A program made the translations under genes and the position numbers. Shown here piece after piece: positions 12,230 to 55,749 of a stretch of 64,000 bases of DNA. Below the pieces are notes generated by a model. It did not search any database and was not told where the DNA came from. It saw nothing but the letters and a program-made list of their open reading frames with translations. Source of the DNA: an uncultured Bacillota bacterium (lineage in GTDB: Bacteria; Bacillota_I; Bacilli_A; RF39; UBA660); the NCBI GenBank assembly GCA_942493215.1, contig OW818670.1:153209-217208 (forward strand), given 5' to 3'. The first letter of the stretch is position 1. Each line of letters begins with the position of its first letter.

Positions 12230-13825
12230 ATGAATTATGAACATTTTAATGATTTAGGCTTAGATACTAAAGTATTAAAGTCTATTGAAACACTTGGTTT
12301 TGAAACTCCAAGTAAAATCCAAAAAGAAATTATCCCCTTAATATTAAAAGGTTTTGATTGTTTAGGTCAAGCTCAAACCGGAACTGGCAAAACATTAGCC
12401 TTTGCGGCTAGTATTTTATCAAAAATAAATGTTATGGGTAATGTTGTTAAAGCTATTATTTTAGTGCCAACTAGAGAGCTAGCTTTACAAGTAAGTGAAG
12501 AATTTGAAACTTTAAATAAATCTAGTCAATTTAATATTTTGGCTGTTTTTGGTGGTTCTAGTATTGAACTTCAAATTAAAGCTTTAAAAAGAGGTGTCGA
12601 CATTGTTGTTGGAACACCAGGTCGTATCAATGATTTAATTGTTCGTCGCGTTTTAAAATTAGATAATATTGAATTTTTTGTCTTAGATGAAGCTGATGAA
12701 ATGCTTAATATGGGATTTGAAGAAGATATTCATACCATCTTCAATAAAACACCCGAGAAAAAACAAGTATTACTATTCTCCGCAACTATGCCTAAAGCAA
12801 TCTTAAATATCGCTAATAAATATATGAAAAAAGACTACCAACATATTAATATTGCTGAAAAGAGTAATACGTCGATTAATGTTAGTCAGTATTATTATCT
12901 AGTCAATGAGAGAACAAGAACTGAAGCTTTATGCCGCGTTGTTGATGTAAAGAATCCAACTCTCGCTTTAATCTTCTGTCAACGTAAAAGTGATGTTGAT
13001 ACCCTTTTAACCGAATTAGCGAAGCGTAATTATAGTGCCGAAGCAATGCACGGTGATATTGCTCAAAATATGCGAATTCAAACCTTAGAACGTTTTAAAG
13101 AAGGGGCATTCACCTACTTAATCGCAACTGATGTAGCTGCTCGTGGAATTCATGTTAATAATATTGATTTAGTTATTAATTATAATCTTCCTCAAGATGT
13201 TGATTCTTATATCCATCGGGTTGGAAGAACAGGTCGAGCTGGTGAAACAGGTGAAGCCATTAGTTTTGTAACACCTAAAGAAGTAAGATTTCTAGAAGAT
13301 GTTGAACGAATTGCTAAATGTACTATTACTAAATGTGAATTACCTGATCTAAAGAGTATTATCGAATCTAAATATCAACGCATTATTAAAGATGTCAATA
13401 CTTTACTAGATAATAAAGACTATGAGGAATGTTTACCTTATGTCAGAGATATGAATAAAGAAGATTCAATTCGTTTCTCTGCTTCTTTATTAAAAATGAT
13501 GCTAAGTAAAGAAATCGGTTCCGATTTTAATAAAGAAATCGTTGTTAAAGAACGCTATGATCGTCGTGATATTGTTAATAAGAATGCAACTAGATTATTC
13601 TTAACGGTTGGAACAATTGATGGTATTAAAAAAGGATCATTACTTGATTTCTTAAAAGAAACAACTCATATTGATAAAGCTTGTTTTAATAATATTGAAG
13701 TATTAAGTAAATTTACCTTTATGGATGTTGATAATAAAATGGTCGATGAAGTTATTAAGAAACTATCTAATAAAAAATTTAGAGATCGTACTATTAGAGT
13801 TGAAAAGGCAGGAAAAAAGAAGTAA
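12230..13825 (+). CDS. cshA: DEAD-box ATP-dependent RNA helicase (CshA/DeaD-like)
   Basis: Q-motif, Walker A (AQTGTGKT), DEAD, SAT, HRVGRTGR and a C-terminal basic RNA-binding tail. The start was trimmed to ATG 12230, downstream of AAGAAAGAGGA. The track ORF start at 12098 adds an implausible hydrophobic leader. Confidence 0.9.
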   Translation: MNYEHFNDLGLDTKVLKSIETLGFETPSKIQKEIIPLILKGFDCLGQAQTGTGKTLAFAASILSKINVMGNVVKAIILVPTRELALQVSEEFETLNKSSQFNILAVFGGSSIELQIKALKRGVDIVVGTPGRINDLIVRRVLKLDNIEFFVLDEADEMLNMGFEEDIHTIFNKTPEKKQVLLFSATMPKAILNIANKYMKKDYQHINIAEKSNTSINVSQYYYLVNERTRTEALCRVVDVKNPTLALIFCQRKSDVDTLLTELAKRNYSAEAMHGDIAQNMRIQTLERFKEGAFTYLIATDVAARGIHVNNIDLVINYNLPQDVDSYIHRVGRTGRAGETGEAISFVTPKEVRFLEDVERIAKCTITKCELPDLKSIIESKYQRIIKDVNTLLDNKDYEECLPYVRDMNKEDSIRFSASLLKMMLSKEIGSDFNKEIVVKERYDRRDIVNKNATRLFLTVGTIDGIKKGSLLDFLKETTHIDKACFNNIEVLSKFTFMDVDNKMVDEVIKKLSNKKFRDRTIRVEKAGKKK

Positions 13826-13829
13826 TTAT
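13784..13829. repeat. Direct repeat copy 1: native 3' end of cshA (last 14 codons + stop + 4 nt)
   Basis: GATCGTACTATTAGAGTTGAAAAGGCAGGAAAAAAGAAGTAATTAT. It recurs at 14860..14905 with 2 mismatches. Confidence 0.85.
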
Positions 13830-13847
13830 TTTAAATTTTTAGAATGA

Positions 13848-13884
13848 AAGTAGAAATAAAAAGATATGTTCTACTTTTTCTTTT
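13848..13884 (+). terminator. Rho-independent terminator of cshA
   Basis: Hairpin AAGTAGAA-(13 nt loop)-TTCTACTT followed by a U-run (TTTTCTTTT). Confidence 0.6.
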
Positions 13885-14233
13885 GATAAAATTATTATTA
13901 GAAAATGAAAAGATAGGCCTAAAGTGATAACAAACAAATACTGAACTAAATACGAAAAATAAAACATTATTTTAGAAATATTAAATAATGAGATATCAAT
14001 AGAAATGAATATTTTTAGACTTTAATGTAAAAGAAAACGAAATCATTGAAGAATATATAGTTGAAATAATATATGATTAAGCAATTTATGACCTGTTTAG
14101 AATTTAAATATTAAAATAAGTTGATGTATAGAACCAAACTGGGATTTATTCATATCCTTTTACTGTCTACTTTTTATTGGCAAATTTATTTTACAGAGCT
14201 TATTCTTCTTAAATCTATTTTTATTAAAAAAAA

Positions 14234-14265
14234 TTGACATTAATAAAATAAAGTGATAGTATAAT
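14234..14265 (+). promoter_or_regulatory. Sigma-A-type promoter of the inserted orphan gene
   Basis: TTGACA (14234..14239), a 17-bp spacer, then an extended -10 TGaTAGTAT. A perfect TATAAT lies 3 nt further on. Confidence 0.55.
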
Positions 14266-14292
14266 TTGAAAATATATTTTAGGAGGGTTTCT

Positions 14293-14832
14293 ATGGGAAA
14301 AAGAGAATTTTATAATGCATTCATTTTAATAGATCGACTTGACAAAGAATTGGTTAAAGAAATAAGTAGTAATGATATTTTTTGGATTACGAGTGATGAT
14401 AACATTATTAATATGGTCATTAACAGTGTAATTCCTAGTATTCACGAATCTGTCACAAAGAGCAAATTCTTTGGTATTGAAAGGCCTACAAAGGTGATAA
14501 GATTTGATTCTGTAAGAATTTATGTTGAGAAGAAAGGAGATAGGTATTTTGATGTTATTTCACAAATAGAAATAAAAAACGGAATCCAAAGAGAATTTGG
14601 AGAAATTGATGATATAGCATTCGACGGTCTATCTGAGATAAGAGAATCAGATGTTGTTCGCCAATTAGAAGATATAAAAAATTGTATGAATCCAAATCAA
14701 GCATATTGTACATATTGTAGTAAATTAAAGAAAATGAGAGACCTGGCTATAAGTAGATATCATAAACATTCACTAAAAACTGATATAATTACTGATTTTC
14801 AAAGAAAATACGGGCCAAAATGCAAACAATAA
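14293..14832 (+). CDS. Orphan hypothetical protein (179 aa) carried on the cshA-3' insertion
   Basis: ORF with AGGAGGG 7 nt before ATG 14293. The track ORF start at 14266 precedes the predicted transcription start. No recognisable domain. The C-terminus has a CxxC and His/Lys-rich stretch (CTYCSKLKKMRDLAISRYHKH). Confidence 0.6.
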   Translation: MGKREFYNAFILIDRLDKELVKEISSNDIFWITSDDNIINMVINSVIPSIHESVTKSKFFGIERPTKVIRFDSVRIYVEKKGDRYFDVISQIEIKNGIQREFGEIDDIAFDGLSEIRESDVVRQLEDIKNCMNPNQAYCTYCSKLKKMRDLAISRYHKHSLKTDIITDFQRKYGPKCKQ

Positions 14833-14859
14833 TGTATATATTTAAATAAAAAATATAAA

Positions 14860-14905
14860 GATCATACTATTAGAGTTGAAAAAGCAGGAAAAAAGAAGTA
14901 ATTAT
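14860..14905. repeat. Direct repeat copy 2: degenerate duplicate of the cshA 3' end, abutting the NUDIX gene stop
   Basis: GATCATACTATTAGAGTTGAAAAAGCAGGAAAAAAGAAGTAATTAT (44/46 identical to copy 1). Its TAA (14899..14901) sits next to the minus-strand NUDIX stop (14902..14904). Confidence 0.85.
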
Positions 14906-15396
14906 ATTACTTCTTTTATTATGTGATGAGTAAAGTTATAATCTCTATCAATTAATCTATCTTTTATAAGTTTGGGCTTAAAATTAATATCCTCTAATTC
15001 TTTAGCTGTTACCCATCTAAATTCTAGTGGTTTTTCAATTCCCTTATCATTTTCAATAATAGTATAATCTTCTAATCTAGCTTCTTTAATATTGATAGGT
15101 TCAACTAGAAAATAAAAGCCGATTTCATGAAAAGGATTACTATTATGTCCTTTGAAAAAGTTTTCAATAACAGCTATATTATTTATTATCTTAACAGGAT
15201 AACCTAATTCTTCATGCATTTCTCGACAGATAGCTTCATTGCTATCTTCACCCAGTTCAACATGACCACCTGGTAGACAATAAAAGGGGTTATTACATAT
15301 TCTAACAATTAAGAATTTATTATTAGCACAAACAATTCCTCCCACCCGATACTTAAAATTGCCTTCATTAGTTGTTAATTTAACATCTACTGCCAT
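14902..15396 (-). CDS. NUDIX hydrolase
   Basis: Nudix box GGHVELGEDSNEAICREMHEELG. Confidence 0.85.
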   Translation of the reverse strand: MAVDVKLTTNEGNFKYRVGGIVCANNKFLIVRICNNPFYCLPGGHVELGEDSNEAICREMHEELGYPVKIINNIAVIENFFKGHNSNPFHEIGFYFLVEPINIKEARLEDYTIIENDKGIEKPLEFRWVTAKELEDINFKPKLIKDRLIDRDYNFTHHIIKEVI

Positions 15397-15450
15397 ATCA
15401 TCACTCCCAATTTATTATAACACTTAAAAAGAAATAGTTAATACTATTTC

Positions 15451-16926
15451 TTATAAAACAATAGCAAATAAATTGCCTGAACCTCTATTAACTAATTTAC
15501 ATAATGTTTGCTGCAATTTATGACGAGCGTTTTCTGGTGTTAATGATAATTTAGCTTGAATACCTTCTTTAACTATGACATCTAAACTACGACCAAATAT
15601 TTCGCTTTTCCATATATTAGCTGGATTAAGATCATAGTCTTTCATTAGATAATTAATTAATTCTTTACTTTGAATTTCTGATCCAATTATTGGTTCAAAA
15701 GTACTTTCAACATCAACTCTTATCATATGAATAGAAGGAGCAACTGCTTTAAGCTTAATACCATAACGACTACCTTGTCTAATAATCTCTGGCGTATCAA
15801 GTTTCATATCTAATAAAGTTGGTGAAGCTACGCCATAACCAGTTGCTTTAACCATTTTTAAAGCTCCTTTAATTTGATCATATTCATATTTAGCTTCATT
15901 ATAGTCTTGAAATAGCTTTAATAAGTCAGCTTTATTAGTAATATCGACATTAATTATTTCTTTTAACACCTGATTATATAATTCAACTGGTGCTTGTAAA
16001 TTAATTGTTACTTCACCACTAGAAGTATTAACATCAGATAAATAGGCTTTACTAATATATTCACAATCCGTAAAATGGGTCGTAATATCTTCAATATCTC
16101 TTAACTTATCAACACTAATAACACTTTCTTTAATTTTTGAAACATATACTTGTTTTAACCAGTTATTAGGGGCTAAACAAGCAATCCATTCTGGCATATT
16201 AACATTTACTTCTAAAACAGGGAATTCATATAATGCCTCTCTTAAAATATTATAAATGTCTTTTTCAATCATTGTTTCGACACTAATTGGTAAAACCGGA
16301 ACATCATAAGTAATATGAAGTTTTTCGGCTAATCGTTCAGTATCTGGTAACATTGGATGCGTTGAATTTAAAATAACAATAAATGGTTTACCAATATCTT
16401 TTAATTCACTTATAACTCTTGTTTCGGCTTCGACATAATCGTTACGATTTAACTCACCAATAGAACCATCAGTCGTAATAACAATACCAATTGATGAATG
16501 ATCACGAATAACTTTTTCGGTACCAATTTCAGCTGCTTCAATAAAGGGTATTTCTTCATCAAACCATGGTGTTTTTACCATTCTAGGACCATTTTCATCT
16601 TCATAACCTTTACAGTTAGGTATGACATACCCCACACAATCAACTAGTCTAATATTAGCGTAAAAATCATCTATCTTAACCTTAGCAGCATGACTAGGAA
16701 CAAACTTTGGTTCCGTCGTCATAATCATTTTTCCTTGCGCACTTTGAGGTATCTCATCTAAGGCTCTTTTTCGTTCATATTCATCTTCAATATTAGGAAC
16801 AACTAAATTCTCAATGAATTTCTTTATAAATGTTGATTTACCCGTTCTAACAGCTCCTACAACCCCTAAATATATATCGCCACCGGTACGCTCAGTAATA
16901 CTTTTGATAATATCAATTTTTTCCAT
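15451..16926 (-). CDS. spoIVA: Stage IV sporulation protein A (spore coat basement-layer ATPase)
   Basis: 491 aa with an N-terminal Walker A (GVVGAVRTGKSTFIKKF) and a highly conserved SpoIVA body. SD AGGGG precedes the ATG. Confidence 0.92.
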   Translation of the reverse strand: MEKIDIIKSITERTGGDIYLGVVGAVRTGKSTFIKKFIENLVVPNIEDEYERKRALDEIPQSAQGKMIMTTEPKFVPSHAAKVKIDDFYANIRLVDCVGYVIPNCKGYEDENGPRMVKTPWFDEEIPFIEAAEIGTEKVIRDHSSIGIVITTDGSIGELNRNDYVEAETRVISELKDIGKPFIVILNSTHPMLPDTERLAEKLHITYDVPVLPISVETMIEKDIYNILREALYEFPVLEVNVNMPEWIACLAPNNWLKQVYVSKIKESVISVDKLRDIEDITTHFTDCEYISKAYLSDVNTSSGEVTINLQAPVELYNQVLKEIINVDITNKADLLKLFQDYNEAKYEYDQIKGALKMVKATGYGVASPTLLDMKLDTPEIIRQGSRYGIKLKAVAPSIHMIRVDVESTFEPIIGSEIQSKELINYLMKDYDLNPANIWKSEIFGRSLDVIVKEGIQAKLSLTPENARHKLQQTLCKLVNRGSGNLFAIVL

Positions 16927-46130: not shown

Positions 46131-47087
46131 ATGAAGCTAAAATTAACTAAAAAGCAATTAATTGTTGGTATCATTGCCTTATTCTTTCTTATTGGTAGTA
46201 CTATTACAACAACAGTAATTATTAAAAACTATAAACATAAGACTAATAATAATATTGATACTACTAATAATGATAATACTAAAGATAATACAGATGAAAA
46301 TACTAATAAAGAAGATGAAAAACCTGAAGAAGATAATTTTACTATTAGTATTGATGGTAAAGAAGTATGTAGTTCAATATATGGACAATGTTTATATACA
46401 CCTAGATATTATATAACCAGAGATACAACTACTGCTAATATTGTTGTTACGACTAATCTAAAAGGTTATGAGATCTATCCTACTACTAGTTATAGTTTAA
46501 AGAGTGGTTTAAACAATATTGTTTATGGTAAAGATAGTAATAAAAAAGAGTTGTCTTTAGATCTATATTTAATTAATAATACTTTATCTGATAATAAAAT
46601 CGACATAAATGATACAGTAAACAATATTACCAGTGTGTTCATAAATTATGATTATGGTTTTAGTACTGATTTTGATAGCTATTTAATCGATAATGTTATG
46701 ATTACTAGTGATAATCATGAGAAATTTATTAAGTGCGCTAAAGATGAATGTAAAGATATGACTAGTCTTAAAAAATACTTTATGGATAAATATTATATGA
46801 GTGAGCGATTAATTGAAGAACTTATTAATAATGCTACTAAGAATGGTTATATTAAGGTTGAAGATAATGTTATATATTTTAAAGGCTATATTATTGGTTA
46901 TGAAGATAGTTATTCATATAATTTCTATAAGACATATAAAGATAATGATAATATATATATAATAATTGATTTAAATGATAACAATGATAATAATAAATAT
47001 AATAGTAGTTATATAGTAAAGTTAATAAAAGTAGATGATAAATATAGTATCGATGATTATGATTATATTGGTACAAGAATAGAATAA
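46131..47087 (+). CDS. Hypothetical membrane-anchored extracellular protein (318 aa; N-terminal TM then an Asn/Asp/Thr-rich low-complexity linker)
   Basis: ORF with a good SD (AGGAGG) upstream, located between tRNA-Lys and tRNA-Val. Followed by a hairpin/T-run terminator (AAAGGACAATAAATTGTCCTTTTTT). Confidence 0.6.
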   Translation: MKLKLTKKQLIVGIIALFFLIGSTITTTVIIKNYKHKTNNNIDTTNNDNTKDNTDENTNKEDEKPEEDNFTISIDGKEVCSSIYGQCLYTPRYYITRDTTTANIVVTTNLKGYEIYPTTSYSLKSGLNNIVYGKDSNKKELSLDLYLINNTLSDNKIDINDTVNNITSVFINYDYGFSTDFDSYLIDNVMITSDNHEKFIKCAKDECKDMTSLKKYFMDKYYMSERLIEELINNATKNGYIKVEDNVIYFKGYIIGYEDSYSYNFYKTYKDNDNIYIIIDLNDNNDNNKYNSSYIVKLIKVDDKYSIDDYDYIGTRIE

Positions 47088-47254: not shown

Positions 47255-47842
47255 TTATCCAATTATTCTTCGATACTGTCCTTCTTTTAATCTCTTAACG
47301 ACCATATCCATCGCATCTACCATTGGTATACTAGGATCCTCTAAACGGGTATACACTAATTGGTTAACAAGATTAATAAATCTATCATCTAAATCTACTA
47401 ATTTACTACTTACACCACTTTTTTGATTATACATTTCATATTTGCCTAAAATCGTAAGATGAGGTATATGATATAATAAATCATATGTATCATAAAAATC
47501 TTTTAGTTCACCATTTTCTCTAAGATATTTAATTTGATTAATAACCGTTAGAGGCGCTACTATTAATAAACCTAGATATCCCATATTAACAAACCCATCC
47601 TCGGTATTAATTGGATAATCATAATCTAAATTAGTAATAGCATAGTCTATTTCTGAAAATACGGATTGGGCTTTAGCAATAAAGTTTCCAGCCACTTCAG
47701 GAGTTACTCTTCTAAATTGATTAAGTACTCTTCTGTGAGCTAATACTTTTTCTTGATTGGGTGTTAAAGATAATTTAAAAAGTTTAGAAGTACATATTTG
47801 ACAATAATGTAGTTCTCCCTTTATTTGTTCATTCAACTTCAT
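47255..47842 (-). CDS. Hypothetical protein, paralog family member 1 (195 aa)
   Basis: Shares the C-terminal signature RFINLVNQLVYTRLEDPSIPMVDAMDMVVKRLK with the two upstream genes. Confidence 0.6.
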   Translation of the reverse strand: MKLNEQIKGELHYCQICTSKLFKLSLTPNQEKVLAHRRVLNQFRRVTPEVAGNFIAKAQSVFSEIDYAITNLDYDYPINTEDGFVNMGYLGLLIVAPLTVINQIKYLRENGELKDFYDTYDLLYHIPHLTILGKYEMYNQKSGVSSKLVDLDDRFINLVNQLVYTRLEDPSIPMVDAMDMVVKRLKEGQYRRIIG

Positions 47843-47869
47843 AACAACGCTGCTTTCTATTTTTATATA

Positions 47870-48439
47870 TTAATTTAATGTTGTAGGCTTTTTTTCTTTA
47901 CAAAATTTCTTGGGTATATTATTAATTATTCTAAACATTGCCTCTTCCATAGGCATATCAGGACTATCTAGACGTAATTGTACTAGTTCATTAACAATAT
48001 CATTGAACATAGGATTAAATGCTCTTAAATCAGAACTAATACCATCTGTACGCTCATTTGATAAATTATATTCATTAGTATCACAAGGAAAATATACATA
48101 TTTAGTGCCACAAAGACTCTTAAAGATATCTGCCAAAACGTCTTTATCGCCTCTTTTACACCTACTAATACCTTTACTTACTATTCCACCAAGTTCCGTA
48201 AGATATATTAATCCATGGGCTGTATCACAGCCATAATCATCTGGACAATGAAAACTAACATAAGAATATTTTGCATCAGCATTCACATCATCCAATGCTC
48301 TTTGAACTTCTATTATAAAATCGGCAGCTAAACCAGCATTAACATGTCTAAACTCTCTTAATATCTTTTTTTCTTTTAAATTTTTATGTCTACTTAATAA
48401 TTTAGCTTTTGATTCCTGATAATAATGCATTAAACCCAT
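47870..48439 (-). CDS. Hypothetical protein, paralog family member 2 (189 aa)
   Basis: C-terminal signature MFNDIVNELVQLRLDSPDMPMEEAMFRIINNI. Carries the N-terminal motif LSRHKNLKEKKILREFRHV...FIIEVQRAL shared with the family. Confidence 0.6.
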   Translation of the reverse strand: MGLMHYYQESKAKLLSRHKNLKEKKILREFRHVNAGLAADFIIEVQRALDDVNADAKYSYVSFHCPDDYGCDTAHGLIYLTELGGIVSKGISRCKRGDKDVLADIFKSLCGTKYVYFPCDTNEYNLSNERTDGISSDLRAFNPMFNDIVNELVQLRLDSPDMPMEEAMFRIINNIPKKFCKEKKPTTLN

Positions 48440-48447
48440 ATTATCAT

Positions 48448-49674
48448 CTATCCTTTCTTTGCTTCTGATAGAGTTCTAACTTTTAATGTCATTCGCTTCT
48501 TTAAAAGATCTATAGCTTTATTAAAAACCTCCTCCATAGATATATCTGGCTCATCTAAACAAATCTTTACTAAATCATTAAAGATTGTTTTAAATTCCAA
48601 ATTATGCATTAATAATTTCTGATTAAGTCCATTTTTTGTTGTATACATATCATAATAACAATCAGAATCAAAGCTAAAATAATCTACTCTTGATAGATTA
48701 AAAACCTGTTCATATACTTTACATTGATCACCTGGCTTGTAGTAAACGCCTTTACAAAAGCCTATATGATTAGCTGGAATTATATACTTCATAGACGAAA
48801 AAATGGTATTTATGTTTGATTTTGGATTAGCAATAGTTAAGTCTCTGGCTTCAAATTTCTCATCGGCTATAACTGATTTAGCATTAGCAATAAATTGTGC
48901 AACCATATCACAATCCATATTTTTAAATCTTTGTAATACTCTTATTTGTCTTAATTCTGCTTCTTGTTGTGGTGTCATATATAATCTTAATTTGTTTTTA
49001 ATAATTAATGATATATTATGTAAGAAATCATTATTATCAAATAATTCTACCTCATTACCAGTTATTTTTTCACCTGTTTTTAATTCGTTAATAACTAGTT
49101 TCATAGCAAAACCCATTGATATACTAGGTCTTTCTAATCTTACTTCAATTAAACGTTTAACTAGGTCTTCAAATCTTGCATCAAATTTTATTAATTGGGA
49201 ATTAATTTTACCATCATTATATAAGTTATAACCAAAATCAAAAATAAATTGAAAACCATTAATACGTTCTAAATAGTCATCTATTTGAGAAACATTTTCA
49301 AAATTTTTTCTATCTTTTTCATCTTGGTCAATTACAACATTTAGTTCACTTTTTCTATCAGCAGGAATAATAATTGTTTTTGTTAATGGCGTATTTATTA
49401 AGCCCTGATTATCATCATTTTTTGCTATTCCATAAGGAGTATAAAAAGCTTTATATCTCTTACCTTTATCACTTTTTTCTTGCTCAAAAAAATTTTTAGC
49501 TTCCACTATAAAATCGTTCATTAAATATGAATCAACAAATTGAAACTCACGTAAAATTATGGCTTTAGCTTTTCTTAATCCTTCGACCGATTTATCTTCT
49601 TGTGTAGGTATACCTAAAGTTCCTTTTATTTTTATCCCTAAATCAGATAAATTATACTTTTTTAAAATTTTCAT
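48448..49674 (-). CDS. Hypothetical protein, paralog family member 3 (408 aa; two tandem copies of the family domain)
   Basis: Two repeats. Each has the N-terminal RxLxxFxxVxxxxAxFI motif and a C-terminal FxDLVKxLIExRLExPxISMxxAM motif (RFEDLVKRLIEVRLERPSISMGFAMKLV and IFNDLVKICLDEPDISMEEVFNKAI). Own promoter (TTGACA-17-TATCAT) and SD. Confidence 0.6.
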   Translation of the reverse strand: MKILKKYNLSDLGIKIKGTLGIPTQEDKSVEGLRKAKAIILREFQFVDSYLMNDFIVEAKNFFEQEKSDKGKRYKAFYTPYGIAKNDDNQGLINTPLTKTIIIPADRKSELNVVIDQDEKDRKNFENVSQIDDYLERINGFQFIFDFGYNLYNDGKINSQLIKFDARFEDLVKRLIEVRLERPSISMGFAMKLVINELKTGEKITGNEVELFDNNDFLHNISLIIKNKLRLYMTPQQEAELRQIRVLQRFKNMDCDMVAQFIANAKSVIADEKFEARDLTIANPKSNINTIFSSMKYIIPANHIGFCKGVYYKPGDQCKVYEQVFNLSRVDYFSFDSDCYYDMYTTKNGLNQKLLMHNLEFKTIFNDLVKICLDEPDISMEEVFNKAIDLLKKRMTLKVRTLSEAKKG

Positions 49675-49755: not shown

Positions 49756-50952
49756 TTATCTTAATTTTCCCTTCATTCCTTTTGAACCTTTTACTCCCTT
49801 TAAGCCATTATGACAGCTTAATATATTAGTATTAAATGAATTAATCTTTTTAGCATTGTTTTTATATTCTTTGATAGCTAAAGTAATTAAATCATCTAAT
49901 AGAGTATGATATTCTTTACCAGCTGCATCCCATAAGTAGAAAGATAAAGATCCTGGAATGGTATTTGGTTCATTAACATAGATATGATTGCTTTTTTTAT
50001 CAACCAAGAAATCAATACGGCATACACCACTTAAGTTTAAAGTTGTGAATGTTTTCTTCGCTAAATCTTTTATTTCTTCAGTCATCTTTTCATCTATTTT
50101 AGCAGGAATAATACGATTAGTTGAAGCCATACCTTTAGACTTACCACCTTTAGTATTACCCAAATATTTATCTCTATATGTTAAGAATTCATCCGCACTT
50201 ATTACTTGTTCTAAAGCACTAGTTTCCTGATATTCATAATTGCCTAATACACTACAATTGATTTCCATTAAGTTTTCAACTTTTTTCTCAATGACAACCT
50301 TTGTATCATATTTTATAGCTTCCAAAACGGCTTCATCTATTTTATCTTCATCTTTAACAATGGTTATACCAATACTACTACCAAGTGTTGCTGGTTTTAC
50401 TACAACTGGATAACCTAACTTTTTAATATCTTTTAGAATATGCTCATTATTAGTTAAATACTCTGTATCATAGAACCATACATATGGAACATAAGGAATA
50501 CCTGTTGCTTCCATTATCTGTTTCATAACCACTTTATCTTGTCCTAAAGCTGATCCTAAAACATTACTTCCAACATATGGAACACCAACCGTTTCTAAAT
50601 AACCTTGTAATGATCCATCTTCTACATTATTACCATGAACAATTGGTAGAATAACATCAATATCACTAATTTCTTTTTTAGAAAATCCCGTTATTCTTTG
50701 TAAAACATAACGGTCATCTTTTTTACATAATACCACACGATTGGCAAATCTTTTTAAATTTTCAAAATCACGATAAATATCTAAATCAGCTAACATATGA
50801 CCAGCATACCAAATTCGATCTTTACTAATATAAATAGGTATTACTTCATATTTTTCAGCATCCATACTTTTAATTGCTTGAATAGCCGATATTATACTTA
50901 CCTCATGTTCAACTGTTTCTCCACCAAATATTACACCAACTTTAATTGCCAT
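49756..50952 (-). CDS. ddl: D-alanine--D-alanine ligase
   Basis: ATP-grasp fold with conserved Ddl N-terminal (VIFGGETVEHEVSI) and C-terminal motifs. About 30 extra residues of Gly/Lys-rich C-terminal tail. Confidence 0.9.
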   Translation of the reverse strand: MAIKVGVIFGGETVEHEVSIISAIQAIKSMDAEKYEVIPIYISKDRIWYAGHMLADLDIYRDFENLKRFANRVVLCKKDDRYVLQRITGFSKKEISDIDVILPIVHGNNVEDGSLQGYLETVGVPYVGSNVLGSALGQDKVVMKQIMEATGIPYVPYVWFYDTEYLTNNEHILKDIKKLGYPVVVKPATLGSSIGITIVKDEDKIDEAVLEAIKYDTKVVIEKKVENLMEINCSVLGNYEYQETSALEQVISADEFLTYRDKYLGNTKGGKSKGMASTNRIIPAKIDEKMTEEIKDLAKKTFTTLNLSGVCRIDFLVDKKSNHIYVNEPNTIPGSLSFYLWDAAGKEYHTLLDDLITLAIKEYKNNAKKINSFNTNILSCHNGLKGVKGSKGMKGKLR

Positions 50953-50966
50953 AATTAATCATCCTC

Positions 50967-52559
50967 CTACTTCTCATTGAATATGTCTGGTAAATCATTT
51001 TCTAACAAGACATATGTTTCTTTATCCTGAAGTTTTTGAACCAAAGGAAAAGCTTCTTTGACATCATTTAAGATATGAATATGTTTTTCTTTATAGTCCT
51101 TACTCATTAAACCTTCATAAATAGGCTTTGTTTGTTCGGCTCCTACTAAGACAACTTCATCACATACTTCTGAAATATATTGACCAAATTTAAAATTCAT
51201 TTCAAATTGTTTTTCGCCCAAATCAATCATACCTGGTGTAACAATAATTTTCTTACCGGGCATCAAGCCTAATACTTCAACCGCCATTTTTGAACCAACG
51301 GGATTAGAATTATAAGCATCATCAATTATATTAATATTACCATATTTCTTTAATTCTAAGCGGTGTTCATAAGCATTTATTTTCTTAACACCTAATTGGA
51401 TCTGCTCCATTGTTAAGCCAAGTTCTAGACCCATCGCTATACCATCTAGAATATTATAAACATTGTGATATCCTAATAACTTAGTGGTAATCGGATATTT
51501 CTTTTTATTGTCTTTTAAGACACAATCAAAAGTCATTCCTTCATAAGATAATTTAATGTTTTCAGCACGAACATCAACATCCTTATTATCAATACCAATC
51601 CAAACTACTTTACATTTATTTTTTAATTTATAACTTAATTGTAATTCATCATCACCATTTAAAACGGCTGTACCATCCTTAGGAATACTCTCTACTAACT
51701 CAAATTTAGCTTTTTGAATATTTTCTTGACTACCAAATGTTTCTAAGTGGGCAACCCCAATTTTTGTTAAAATCGCATATTTAGGTTTAATAAATTTACA
51801 TGATCTCGTTATTTCTCCAACCCGCATGGCTGATATTTCCGCTACAAAGATATCCGCAAATTTATCAATATAATTATTAATGGTATTAATTAAACCATAA
51901 GTTGTATTATAATTTTTAGGAGTTTGAAAAGAATTATACTTAATACTTAAAATATCATTAACGGCATTCTTCGTACTAGTCTTACCATAACTACCCGTTA
52001 CTCCTACTACTACTAAATTATTCATTTGTTTTAACTTTCTTGATGCTTGATGCCAATATTTATAGAAAACCGCTTTCTCAATTGGTTTATTAACAACATT
52101 AGCAGCCATAACGACAAAATAATTAATATAAATTAATAATCCAAGAAATAAGTAATAATAAGTTAAATATGATTCATCAAAGAAAATATACATACCTATA
52201 ACTGGGATTAAATATAAAATTAAAGTTGTTACTAATAACCTTTTTATCCGAGGCGTAATAACAAGGGGTTTTTTGGTTTGTTCATTCTTATATTTTTTGT
52301 AATGAAAACAAGACGCTACTAAATAATAAAGACTAAATAATACCATTAAGATAATAGGATCAATAAATAGTCCTACCATAAACATAATGAAAAACATATC
52401 TGGTTCAAAGAATACCTTATATGGATTCTTTATAATCCATCTTAAATATCTTTGATTTTCATTATAAAAATTTTGTTGTAAGATATGAAAACCTTTTTTC
52501 GTTTTTAAACCAGCATAAATAAAGACAAGAATAAGGGAATAAAGAAAATACTCTTTCAT
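50967..52559 (-). CDS. murF: UDP-MurNAc-tripeptide--D-Ala-D-Ala ligase MurF with an atypical ~165-aa polytopic membrane N-terminus
   Basis: Mur ligase central P-loop (GVTGSYGKTSTK) appears only at residue ~188. The C-terminal MurF signature is IDDAYNSNP...GMIDLG. The first ~165 aa form about five hydrophobic helices in place of the normal soluble MurF N-domain. Confidence 0.8.
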   Translation of the reverse strand: MKEYFLYSLILVFIYAGLKTKKGFHILQQNFYNENQRYLRWIIKNPYKVFFEPDMFFIMFMVGLFIDPIILMVLFSLYYLVASCFHYKKYKNEQTKKPLVITPRIKRLLVTTLILYLIPVIGMYIFFDESYLTYYYLFLGLLIYINYFVVMAANVVNKPIEKAVFYKYWHQASRKLKQMNNLVVVGVTGSYGKTSTKNAVNDILSIKYNSFQTPKNYNTTYGLINTINNYIDKFADIFVAEISAMRVGEITRSCKFIKPKYAILTKIGVAHLETFGSQENIQKAKFELVESIPKDGTAVLNGDDELQLSYKLKNKCKVVWIGIDNKDVDVRAENIKLSYEGMTFDCVLKDNKKKYPITTKLLGYHNVYNILDGIAMGLELGLTMEQIQLGVKKINAYEHRLELKKYGNINIIDDAYNSNPVGSKMAVEVLGLMPGKKIIVTPGMIDLGEKQFEMNFKFGQYISEVCDEVVLVGAEQTKPIYEGLMSKDYKEKHIHILNDVKEAFPLVQKLQDKETYVLLENDLPDIFNEK

Positions 52560-53311
52560 TAATTATCACTACCTTCTATAAAACTTTGTAAAACTTTAAC
52601 TGTTTGACCAAGACGTTCTAAATAAGCATAATGAGTACAATTTTCATATACTACTAATCCTGCATTATCAATTAACTGTTCTAATTTATATGCATCATCA
52701 ATAGGTACCGCAGTATCTAATGTCCCCCAAATAATTAAAGTTGGGCACTTTATTTTAAATAGTTCATCAGTAATATCGAGATTAACATGATTAACCATAA
52801 TTTCTCGCATCATCGGATTAGCGTTACGATAATCAGTTGACCCAAAATGTTTCTTTGCCCATTCTTCTAAAGGTTTAATATTAATTTTACTCTTTAAATT
52901 CTTTAATATGCGTATCTTTAAAGATTTATTATCTTTAGCTTTATATGGACTAGCCATTACTACTAATTTCTGAACTTTATATTTAGATGCATATAATAAA
53001 CTTATTTTACCTCCAAAGGAATGACCTACTAATATCGGATTTTCTATTTTTAAGTAATTAATTAATTCATAAAGACAATCGACATAATCATATAATGTCC
53101 AAGGATAATTAGGAGTAGAGCTTTCTCCATGGCCTGGTAAATCAATAATTGTTACATAACAATTATCACTTATACCATCCCCAACACCCTTCATCATCTC
53201 GATGTTTTGTTGCCAACCATGAAGTAATATCACCATAGGTCCTTTTTTATTACCATATTGGATATAATTTACATCAACATTTTTTATATTTATTTTCATT
53301 CTATCCACCAT
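52559..53311 (-). CDS. Alpha/beta-fold hydrolase
   Basis: Nucleophile elbow GHSFGG, HGW oxyanion region and C-terminal Asp/His. Confidence 0.8.
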   Translation of the reverse strand: MVDRMKINIKNVDVNYIQYGNKKGPMVILLHGWQQNIEMMKGVGDGISDNCYVTIIDLPGHGESSTPNYPWTLYDYVDCLYELINYLKIENPILVGHSFGGKISLLYASKYKVQKLVVMASPYKAKDNKSLKIRILKNLKSKINIKPLEEWAKKHFGSTDYRNANPMMREIMVNHVNLDITDELFKIKCPTLIIWGTLDTAVPIDDAYKLEQLIDNAGLVVYENCTHYAYLERLGQTVKVLQSFIEGSDN

Positions 53312-53369: not shown

Positions 53370-54269
53370 TTAGTCTTGTTTTTCTTTATTTTCTGACATC
53401 ATTTCTTTAATTGTTGTACCTAGAGTTGCAATATTTTGTAAATCTGATGGTACGATAATTTTGGTAGCTGTTCCATTTGCTAATACTTGTAAAGCTTCTA
53501 AACTCTTTAATGTAATAACGGTTTGATCAGCTTTAACATCTTTAATTAATCTAATACCTTCAGCTTCTGCTTGTTTTAATTTAAGAATAGCTTCTGCTTC
53601 ACCTTCAGCTTCTCTAATTTGTGATTCTTTTTTAGCTTCTGCTCGAAGAATCGCACTTTCTTTTTCACCTTCAGCAATTAAAATACTAGATCTTTTTTCA
53701 CCTTCAGCACGAAGGATAGACTCTCTTCTTTCACGTTCTGCCCGCATTTGTTTTTCCATAGCTTCTTGAATATCACGTGGAGGAAGAATGTTTTTAACCT
53801 CAACTCGGGTTACTTTTATACCCCACGGATCGGTTGCTTCATCAAGAATTGCTCGCATCTTAGAATTAATTATATCCCTTGATGTTAATGTTTCATCTAA
53901 TTCTAAATCACCAATAATATTACGTAATGTTGTTGCTGTCAGAGACTCAATGGCATCAATTGGATTTTCAACCCCATAAGTATACAATTTAGCATCCGTT
54001 ATTTGAAAATAAACAACTGTATCTATTTGCATAGTGACATTATCTTTTGTAATAACTGGTTGTGGTGCGAAATCTTTAACAATTTCCTTTAATGTAACCT
54101 TATTAGCAATTCTATCTAGAAATGGTAATTTAACATGTAAACCATTATCCCAAGTAGCATAATAAGAACCTATTCGTTCAACAACATAAGTTTTTGCTTG
54201 CGGAACAATTTTGATATTAGGAATAACTAAAATTAAAACTAAAACTAAAATAATTAAAAATATATCCAT
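53370..54269 (-). CDS. SPFH/band-7 (stomatin/prohibitin-like) membrane protein
   Basis: N-terminal TM, SPFH domain, C-terminal Glu/Ala-rich coiled coil (EGEKRSSILIAEGEKESAILRAEAKKESQIREAEGEAEAIL). Confidence 0.9.
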   Translation of the reverse strand: MDIFLIILVLVLILVIPNIKIVPQAKTYVVERIGSYYATWDNGLHVKLPFLDRIANKVTLKEIVKDFAPQPVITKDNVTMQIDTVVYFQITDAKLYTYGVENPIDAIESLTATTLRNIIGDLELDETLTSRDIINSKMRAILDEATDPWGIKVTRVEVKNILPPRDIQEAMEKQMRAERERRESILRAEGEKRSSILIAEGEKESAILRAEAKKESQIREAEGEAEAILKLKQAEAEGIRLIKDVKADQTVITLKSLEALQVLANGTATKIIVPSDLQNIATLGTTIKEMMSENKEKQD

Positions 54270-54695
54270 TTATTTCACTCCTTTAACCTTTAATTTAGTA
54301 CTATTAATTTCTAAAACTATAACCTTACTATTTTTTACTATTTTGGTATCAGCGTAAGCTGTCCATATTTTACCATCAACTTTTACTTCGCCATAACCAC
54401 CTTTTTTAATATTGGAGATTACCATTCCTTGCATTCCAATAATGCGATCAAGATTAGTCTTTGTCTTTCGATTGTTTAAAAATTTAATCAAAGTTGAACG
54501 TGTGGTTGCTAATAAAATAACACCACCAACGACAAATACACCCATTTGAATTAAAGCATTATTTGTAAAAAAAGAAACAATCAAAGCTAAGATACCACTT
54601 GCAACAAACCAAATAGTTGTTAAATTAATAGTTGCTAATTCAATAATAGCCAATAAAACAATTGTAAATAACCAATAATAAAACATACTCACCAC
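54270..54695 (-). CDS. NfeD-family membrane protein (partner of the SPFH protein)
   Basis: 141 aa with an N-terminal TM region and a C-terminal OB-like beta domain. Abuts the SPFH gene on the same strand. Confidence 0.75.
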   Translation of the reverse strand: MVSMFYYWLFTIVLLAIIELATINLTTIWFVASGILALIVSFFTNNALIQMGVFVVGGVILLATTRSTLIKFLNNRKTKTNLDRIIGMQGMVISNIKKGGYGEVKVDGKIWTAYADTKIVKNSKVIVLEINSTKLKVKGVK

Positions 54696-54796
54696 CTAAT
54701 TATCATTATACTACAATATATGTTGGTTTTCTAGTAATAATTTGCGGAAAGTTTTTAAAATAAGAAGCATAAACTTGTACAAAGGAGAAATATATA

Positions 54797-55749
54797 TGCC
54801 AACCAATAATTTTGAAGCTTTTTATGAAAATATTAAAGATCGTATAGCCCCTATGTTATCTGATAATCCTTGTTTTAAAGATGAATTAAAGCGTATTTAT
54901 TTATCATTTAATAATGATGATATTGAATGCCGTTTAGAAAATAATGGTCGTAAAATCATTTTTAATGATTGCCACACTGACTCTAATTATATTAATAAAA
55001 GTACCAGGGTTTTAAAGATGGTTACCATAAGTAGTAGTATTGGTGAAATTATGGTTGACGAAATGAAGAATCATACAACTGTTAATGATAGTCTACCTAA
55101 TGCTGAAAGTAATGAATCACAATTATTTGACATTTTCTTACAATATACTTATCGTTACTTTGATAAAGATGGTTTAGAAATAGAACATTGTGGTATGAGT
55201 ACTAAATTAAAAGAAATATGTGATGTATCTTTCTTCTTAAATTACTCTATTATGTATCATATATTAATGAAATATCGTCCACTATTCATGTTTGGTAATA
55301 CTCCTCAATGTCCAGAATCTGTAAATAAAGAAACGACATCTACTTACTGCTATAACCGTTCTAATAGTAATCTCGCTATGGTTGGTTGTACCGTTAATAT
55401 TTGTCGTGAACAAATCGATGATGATACTAATGCTTTATATTATGATGATTCCTGTCACGAACAAAAATTAATGATTAATCCGCGCGATCTTAATGGACCA
55501 GCAATTGGTTTTTATATTAAAGGACAATATCTTCTATCTGGGCGACCTCAATATTTAAACTTTAATCCCCAACATATTTTAAGTGGTGATGAAATTAATA
55601 GTGGCATTTATAATGCTCCCTACTTTTTAAAACAAGTTGAAGCTTTTCTTGGTGATAATAAAGGATCATCACCTTTATATGAAAGCTTAATGCGAAGAGG
55701 CAAACAACAATTAGTGGAGGAAGAAAAAAGATTAATAAAAAAAGACTGA
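54797..55749 (+). CDS. Hypothetical protein (317 aa, Cys-rich, no recognisable domain)
   Basis: ORF whose start was trimmed to ATG 54797, after AAGGAGAAA. Confidence 0.5.

Follow-up and report, generated by a model that had tools for sequence, protein, structure and literature searches.

How a cell could complete the stem peptide of its peptidoglycan precursor with a MurF that has no domain 1, and what a membrane domain would do in its place, is the question raised by one gene in a 64,000-nucleotide stretch of contig OW818670.1 (positions 153,209 to 217,208; assembly GCA_942493215.1) from an uncultured Bacillota bacterium of the RF39 lineage; this whole stretch is called the window below. Textbooks describe the Mur ligases, which are targets of antibiotics, as soluble enzymes of the cytoplasm, and in solved MurF structures domain 1 helps to hold the uridine diphosphate (UDP) end of the substrate. 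The product of the gene, which we call TM-MurF (for transmembrane [TM] MurF), has a MurF-type catalytic core, lacks the canonical domain 1 and has in its place some 160 residues that form a conserved helical domain of membrane type. It is probably a membrane-integral UDP-MurNAc-tripeptide:D-Ala-D-Ala ligase and, as such, a new architectural variant of the enzyme. The gene is an unbroken open reading frame (ORF) with an ATG start and a 530-residue product, and it and the parts of its ligase core lie as follows (coordinates are those of the window).

50967..52559, minus strand: TM-MurF gene, 530 amino acids, membrane domain at the N terminus followed by central and C-terminal domains of MurF type (ORF, Pfam and NCBIfam matches, homologues of the same length, AlphaFold2 model)
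51432..52001, minus strand: Mur ligase middle (ATPase) domain, residues 187 to 376 (PF08245, Mur_ligase_M, E 8e-43)
51969..52004, minus strand: P-loop for ATP binding, GVTGSYGKTSTK, residues 186 to 197
51012..51365, minus strand: Mur ligase C-terminal domain, residues 399 to 516, with DDAYNSNP (413 to 420) and PGMIDLG (442 to 448) (PF02875, Mur_ligase_C; alignment to T. maritima and E. coli MurF; invariant columns)
50973..51008, minus strand: C-terminal motif LLENDLPDIFNE, residues 518 to 529, near-invariant within the TM-MurF family

In a Pfam scan of the 530-residue protein, the Mur ligase N-domain (PF01225) was absent, and residues 1 to 186 had no match to any Pfam family. The best NCBIfam model was TIGR01143 (MurF), at 225.2 bits compared to at most 90 bits for the MurE, MurC, and MurD models. 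Only profile positions 64 to 403 of 418 were aligned, to residues 172 to 519, and the C-terminal motif, with the family consensus LENDLPDxFNE, falls where the last 15 positions of the profile fail to align. The seven top sequence matches in the PDB were all MurF (T. maritima 3zl8, E. coli 1gg4, and the enzymes of P. aeruginosa, A. baumannii, and S. pneumoniae), and these solved chains aligned from about residue 175 to 185 of the query onward, which corresponds to their own residues 76 to 117 onward. The top structural matches were likewise MurF (4qf5, 3zl8, 4cvm, and 1gg4). A preliminary description of the gene had stated that the soluble N-terminal domain is replaced by a membrane domain and that the P-loop lies near residue 188 rather than near residue 100. 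Both statements were borne out, the first by the missing PF01225, the start of the TIGR01143 alignment at position 64, and the conservation of membrane-type helices, and the second by the P-loop at residues 186 to 197.

The motifs DDxYNxNP and GxMxELG are specific to MurF. At the residue level, DDAYNSNP and PGMIDLG of TM-MurF were aligned with ddtYNasp/ddsYNan and gaMkELG/gdMaELG of T. maritima/E. coli MurF. Conservation figures were taken from an alignment of 86 sequences, synteny was assessed in 89 loci with TM-MurF, and neighboring Mur ligases were sought in 85 related loci (about 1.4 Mb). The GSYGKT segment of the P-loop (residues 189 to 194), which fits GxxGK[TS], is invariant, and in comparisons of 43 to 86 homologues the P-loop, E241, H271, K285, D303/D304, H399/R400, DDAYNSNP, and PGMxxLG were all invariant or near-invariant. 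Canonical MurF (1GG4, 3ZL8, 4QF5, 4CVK) is the best profile and structural match to TM-MurF and has in common with it the central ATPase and C-terminal domains, the P-loop, DDxYNxNP, and GxMxxLG, and TM-MurF is linked to ddl and murE. However, canonical MurF has a soluble domain 1 of about 80 to 100 residues, whereas TM-MurF has the membrane domain instead, and TM-MurF is further set apart by the ENDLPDxFNE motif at its C terminus, a TIGR01143 score below the cutoff, the gene order murF-ddl, and a hydrolase gene upstream. Judged by sequence, TM-MurF is homologous to MurF in two of three domains but departs from it in domain 1 and in falling below the curated cutoff, and it would therefore be an architectural variant rather than a plain member of the family.

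The N-terminal region has the following parts.

52080..52559, minus strand: helical membrane domain, residues 1 to 160, with 4 to 5 predicted TM helices, N terminus predicted outside and C terminus inside
52425..52487, minus strand: motif of predicted cytoplasmic loop 1, HILQQNFYNENQRYLRWIIKN, residues 25 to 45, consensus HMLQQNxY..RY..W (alignments A1 and A2, conservation over 86 sequences)
52227..52283, minus strand: motif of predicted cytoplasmic loop 2, EQTKKPLVITPRIKRLLVT, residues 93 to 111, at the membrane face just ahead of TM4
52074..52091, minus strand: NKPIEK, residues 157 to 162, at the predicted cytoplasmic end of TM5; P159 and E161 are invariant

Kyte-Doolittle and Hessa-type scans marked hydrophobic segments at about residues 53 to 66, 68 to 86, 108 to 126, and 132 to 155, plus a weak one at about residues 4 to 18; helix 1 is marginal, and the predicted count is therefore five helices if it crosses the membrane and four if not. 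Membrane-like hydrophobic minima were confined to the first 165 residues in 85 of 86 homologues. The mean number of Lys plus Arg residues was 6.8 in loop 19-52, 7.8 in loop 86-107, and 5.9 after the last helix, compared to only 0.4 to 0.5 at the N-terminal tip and in both short turns, all predicted to lie outside. Under the positive-inside rule, this bias indicates an N-out, C-in topology, and the ligase core and both long basic loops are thus predicted to face the cytoplasm. AlphaFold2 modeled the full protein with a predicted local distance difference test score (pLDDT) of 87.7 and a predicted template modeling score of 0.76, and the N-domain alone with a pLDDT of 90.8; the region was all-helical in both models. 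In the model, helix 146-178, which includes NKPIEK, is an unbroken extension of the last membrane helix and leads straight to the first strand of the ligase core. The five or so hydrophobic helices that had been described for residues 1 to 165 were thus found, as four to five segments; the short loops said to join them were not, as two of the predicted cytoplasmic loops have about 30 and 20 residues and are the best-conserved parts of the domain.

Mean column identity was 0.64 to 0.66 in the cytoplasmic loops, 0.35 to 0.51 in the TM helices, and 0.71 to 0.74 in the ligase domains. Within loop 2, R104 and R107 are invariant and K96 and T102 nearly so. Y32, R104, R107, P159, and E161 are invariant even in N-domains with 27 to 34% identity to that of the window, and the motifs that persist in such distant N-domains are HMLQQNxY..RY..W (residues 25 to 41), KKPLVxTxRxKRLxxT (96 to 111), and NxPIEK (157 to 162). 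Because the loops are better conserved than the helices, the alignment suggests a scaffold role for the helices, with the functional surface formed by a patch of basic and aromatic residues on the cytoplasmic face of the membrane. Residues 1 to 180 had no significant match to any Pfam or NCBIfam family or to any solved fold. The Pfam family EI24/CysZ was matched by 2 of 15 diverse N-domains (alignment A2; best E 5.6e-06) and not by the other 13, and the match is probably compositional.

Thousands of matches to TM-MurF were obtained in a search of 5.8 billion clustered proteins. The top 120 were all of 525 to 540 residues, with 97 to 100% query coverage and 59 to 89% identity, and were called MurF where they had a name; databases simply label TM-MurF as MurF. 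A scan of one genome per GTDB species confirmed a relative in at least 571 species representatives, and the full-length homologues listed had about 515 to 560 residues and the same layout. The best 80 GTDB relatives were uncultured gut metagenome-assembled genomes (MAGs), mostly labeled Bacilli, Mollicutes/Tenericutes/Mycoplasmatota, or Erysipelotrichaceae, and included Candidatus Coprosoma and Candidatus Coprovivens. When residues 1 to 175 alone were searched against 1.84 billion representatives (phmmer, filter-only), 390 clusters were retrieved, all of them the fusion or fragments thereof; full-length members had 521 to 559 residues and the same layout, and short ones stopped at contig edges or ran into out-of-frame junk. 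No stand-alone N-domain and no N-domain on another enzyme was found among these representatives, nor was the membrane segment present in relatives as a separate upstream ORF, a possibility raised in the preliminary description; an N-domain profile search returned short fragments only.

TM-MurF is flanked on both sides by genes with which it is closely packed.

52559..53311, minus strand: alpha/beta-hydrolase, 250 amino acids, triad S98/D199/H227 (Pfam and NCBIfam matches, synteny, triad conservation)
49756..50952, minus strand: D-Ala-D-Ala ligase (DdlA type), 398 amino acids, third gene of the operon (NF002528, 2i87, synteny)
49759..49857, minus strand: Lys/Gly-rich C-terminal tail of Ddl, residues 366 to 398 (SFxSNIL..GxKGxKGMKGK), conserved, about 33 residues past the end of the alignment with the closest solved Ddl

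The TAA stop codon of the hydrolase gene overlaps the ATG of murF (TAATG), and the ribosome-binding site of ddl (AGGAGG) overlaps the murF stop codon. The hydrolase gene was directly upstream in 76 of 89 loci, with a spacing of −23 to +14 nucleotides (most commonly −4, −1, or +1) in 75 of these 76, and ddl was directly downstream in 79 of 89, typically 5 to 15 nucleotides away. The genes abh, murF, and ddl form a tight, widely conserved three-gene operon with murF in the middle. The preliminary description had correctly given the gene order as murF-ddl and had overlooked both the translationally coupled, conserved hydrolase upstream and the centering of conservation on the loops. The Ser98/Asp199/His227 triad of the hydrolase is conserved, and its nearest solved relatives are lipid esterases, namely 6i8w (which we take to be PlaF of P. 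aeruginosa), a lipase, and ABHD6. Ddl scored 320 bits with NF002528 (cutoff, 262), and its nearest solved structure is S. aureus Ddl (2i87). A Van-type specificity of this Ddl (D-Ala-D-Ser or D-Ala-D-Lac) was considered and is unsupported, as D-Ala-D-Ala ligase models passed their cutoffs and Van models failed. Besides its tail, Ddl has a small Lys/Gly-rich insert at about residues 264 to 280; tail and insert could be elements for membrane association or partner binding that match a membrane-bound MurF.

No other Mur ligase was found in the window. Nine further Mur ligase ORFs were found around TM-MurF in the related loci. Six of these were classified by NCBIfam, five as MurE (loci L042, L067, and L078, and two in L052) and one as MurC (L081), and have normal soluble N-domains; the remaining three (L045 and two in L062) were matched to MurE by phmmer only. 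The operon is preceded by murE in L042 and L045. In L052, mraY comes right after murE, with no murF in between; the pair is within 6 kb of TM-MurF, which is about 4 kb upstream of it. Between TM-MurF and murE-mraY of this locus (12448-15623, minus strand), a second MurE-type ligase (470 amino acids) overlaps an amidase-signature protein (588 amino acids) by 4 nucleotides, a pair that could modify the stem peptide, and a similar MurE-like ORF stands at the matching position in L062. Locus L078 (7660-12958, plus strand) encodes a SleB-type cell wall hydrolase, an AsnB-type glutamine amidotransferase, TM-MurF, and then, 18 nucleotides downstream, a MurE of the meso-diaminopimelate type; TM-MurF has no adjacent alpha/beta-hydrolase or Ddl there.

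The trio of hydrolase, TM-MurF, and Ddl was present in the distant lineages sampled, except for L088, where the contig ends within the gene that follows TM-MurF, for which there is no Pfam record, and where only the hydrolase-TM-MurF pair was confirmed. At L087, a Firmicutes-type locus with 34% G+C (GC) content, pantetheinyl-transferase (Pfam ACPS) and alanine racemase genes were found downstream; the ddl-murF region of B. subtilis has acpS and alr nearby. The trio was found at 47% GC in L089 and, with 34 to 44% identity, on contigs of 48 to 49% GC and up to 346 kb in L084 (9238-12885) and L086 (9241-12848), which belong to a large group labeled Bacteroidaceae. Shine-Dalgarno-like sites preceded 0 of 14 and 1 of 10 genes in the L084/L086 group versus 10 to 13 in Firmicutes-type loci. 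Since such sites are almost missing, the trio appears to stand in a genuinely different, Bacteroidota-like background there, which suggests that it was transferred whole between phyla long ago.

Among known systems, some resemble TM-MurF in part. MurT of the MurT/GatD complex, which was among the fold matches, belongs to the Mur ligase superfamily, has no canonical domain 1, and works on peptidoglycan precursors at the membrane; unlike TM-MurF, it has no TM domain, has its own C-terminal domain and a GatD partner, and amidates D-Glu. The MurT model NF052464 gave 20.8 bits versus a cutoff of 800, and no GatD-like gene was seen beside TM-MurF in the window. PgsB/CapB is an ATP-dependent amide ligase of the Mur ligase/FolC superfamily with an N-terminal hydrophobic anchor and a place in a membrane complex, but the anchor is a single helix, substrate and product are other ones, and no specific similarity to the N-domain of TM-MurF came to light. 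VanT, a membrane-bound serine racemase, joins an enzyme of a normally soluble, precursor-type kind to an N-terminal polytopic membrane domain, but that domain, of the acyltransferase-3 type with some 10 or more helices, is unrelated, the catalysis is that of a racemase, and the gene belongs to a resistance operon. All three are partial analogies only. The MurE-MurF (PRK11929), MurF-Alr (PRK11930), and MurC-Ddl (PRK14573) proteins, whose models match the TM-MurF core, are fusions of soluble with soluble enzymes that keep domain 1, and none has a membrane domain; these known fused Mur enzymes show that new domains can be joined to a MurF core. In the searchable full-text literature, we found no description of this architecture under a transmembrane or membrane-anchored MurF or Mur ligase or under MurF in RF39, RFN20, or Erysipelotrichales, and a KEGG Orthology (KO) search of one paper's supplement returned nothing. 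TM-MurF is thus apparently an undescribed variant of a core cell wall enzyme with a conserved, unexplained partner gene.

With a membrane-integral MurF, the steps would be as follows. Ddl, made from the shared transcript, would supply D-Ala-D-Ala, and the membrane-held ligase core, which we infer to be catalytically active, would add it to the tripeptide precursor at the expense of ATP. The last TM helix, running into the core, would hold the active site close to the inner membrane face, and the predicted topology would thereby tether the last cytoplasmic step to the membrane. The loops, rich in Arg, Lys, Tyr, and Gln, and the PIE motif (with Y32, R104, R107, P159, and E161) would replace domain 1 by binding the nucleotide-diphosphate end of the substrate; a replacement substrate-binding surface is their most likely role, and they may also be a docking surface for partners. 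The pentapeptide product would be released beside MraY and might be channeled to it.

Several points weigh against this assignment. The domain that would bind the UDP moiety is absent. TM-MurF does not reach the curated TIGR01143 cutoff (288.6) or that of any other NCBIfam model. Compared with MurF structures, the core scored 100 bits with S. pneumoniae (the one Firmicutes match), 123 with Thermotoga, and 121 with E. coli; as it is no closer to the Firmicutes enzyme than to the other two, it would represent a deep branch of MurF and not an obvious recent derivative of MurF from Bacilli. Textbook accounts of peptidoglycan precursor synthesis have no role for the partner hydrolase, and in the Bacteroidaceae-labeled lineage the trio could be an extra copy. 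A second, canonical murF, for which the preliminary description had proposed a check, may lie outside the window and the 85 related loci, in which none was found.

One alternative makes the trio an accessory module, horizontally mobile and present beside a canonical MurF, that acts on another acceptor, in an alternative or backup route, or in muropeptide salvage after trimming by the hydrolase. A deep-branching core that scores below the family cutoff and a hydrolase kept directly upstream in most loci would suit such a module, as would the intact trio both in genomes with strong Shine-Dalgarno sites (of 25 to 34% GC and, in one case, 47% GC) and in the lineage of 48 to 49% GC that has 0 to 1 such sites in 10 to 14 genes. 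KO-based surveys moreover report missing peptidoglycan steps and possible muropeptide scavenging in RF39, RFN20, and ML615J-28 (PMC10868615). Nevertheless, the same work describes the carrier lineages as genome reduced (PMC10868615), and a redundant second MurF plus Ddl is improbable in such Bacilli/Mollicutes/Tenericutes MAGs. Surveys of RF39 and RFN20 found the pathway complete or mostly present in many genomes (PMC7301438, PMC10868615); the score of complete (PMC7301438) implies that some MurF was recognized, and TM-MurF is the sole candidate seen here. Given these surveys, the proximity of murE and mraY in several species, and the lack of a canonical MurF in the window and the 85 neighborhoods, we regard an accessory module as unlikely and a housekeeping role for TM-MurF as most likely.

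A second alternative leaves the reaction in the main pathway and changes the acceptor: D-Ala-D-Ala would be added to undecaprenyl-pyrophosphate-MurNAc(-GlcNAc)-tripeptide (lipid I or lipid II tripeptide) instead of the UDP-linked precursor, and polyprenyl-pyrophosphate would be bound by the membrane domain and its arginine pair at the membrane face, which would stand in for the lost UDP-binding domain. That domain 1 is the only part lost fits this proposal, and so do the invariant R104, R107, Y32, and E161 in predicted cytoplasmic loops beside TM helices; MurT is a precedent for a Mur ligase homologue that has no domain 1 and uses lipid II, and the nearest solved relatives of the partner hydrolase are membrane-lipid enzymes. 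The Arg and Tyr residues would, however, suit the diphosphate of UDP equally well, the neighboring MurE and MurC are ordinary soluble enzymes that make UDP-MurNAc-tripeptide, and MraY would have to transfer the tripeptide precursor efficiently. A lipid-linked acceptor is rather improbable. An equally slim chance is given to the broader proposal that the membrane domain is a substrate-binding module beyond an anchor, with the stem peptide completed on lipid I or lipid II tripeptide or with TM-MurF in a fixed complex with the hydrolase, the Lys-tailed Ddl, and MraY; if this were true, a large group of gut bacteria would carry out the "last cytoplasmic step" of peptidoglycan synthesis as a membrane step.

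The weakest alternative, an artifact in which a normal murF has been fused to an unrelated membrane ORF through a frameshift, a misassembly, or a wrongly placed start codon, could draw on the unusual length, on a few shorter or junk-ended database entries (which fit contig ends or local errors), and on some gene calls that begin 25 residues later, but has next to no chance of being right and was rejected, since hundreds of independent assemblies have an uninterrupted ORF of about 530 codons with conserved N-terminal motifs, the architecture recurs in the species representatives and in two phylum-level backgrounds, the murF start overlaps the upstream stop here and in most relatives, and the window has no separate murF start with a domain 1. 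The frameshift that the preliminary description had named as grounds for abandoning its proposal is thereby excluded.

Further genes of the window surround the operon. Immediately upstream lies an NfeD and Band-7 (stomatin-like) pair (53370-54695, minus strand) that recurs in a subset of relatives; in some of these, such as L001, a Rce1-like CAAX protease gene lies between the pair and the hydrolase. Directly 3' of ddl (47255-49674, minus strand), three ORFs of 408, 189, and 195 codons contain four copies of one domain of about 190 residues, which are 23 to 25% identical over the full length and 44% over the C-terminal 55 or so residues (...RLExPxIxMxxAM...); these ORFs had no Pfam match and no tblastn counterpart in the loci then compared. 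On the opposite strand, the region is flanked by two ORFs with no Pfam match, at 46131-47087 (plus strand, 318 amino acids) and 54742-55749 (plus strand, 335 amino acids), and in the former a hydrophobic helix at the N terminus precedes a low-complexity stretch rich in Asn, Asp, and Thr.

Whether the cytoplasmic steps of peptidoglycan synthesis are organized at the membrane, via MreB, MurG, and MraY scaffolds, is a long-running question. As a membrane-integral MurF, TM-MurF would mean that this enzyme has become part of the membrane, and the domain that holds UDP has been discarded, in a large group of gut bacteria that are prevalent and mostly uncultured. The sub-cutoff score may have consequences where profiles are used to judge whether the pathway is complete in RF39, RFN20, and ML615J-28 genomes, and inhibitors aimed at the interface of MurF domains 1 and 2 would not apply to TM-MurF. 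For peptidoglycan specialists the interest would be moderate to high, and high if the membrane domain alters the substrate or organizes a precursor complex. In these bacteria, TM-MurF would be a natural test case for substrate recognition without domain 1, for a channeled hand-over to MraY, and for the contribution of the hydrolase.

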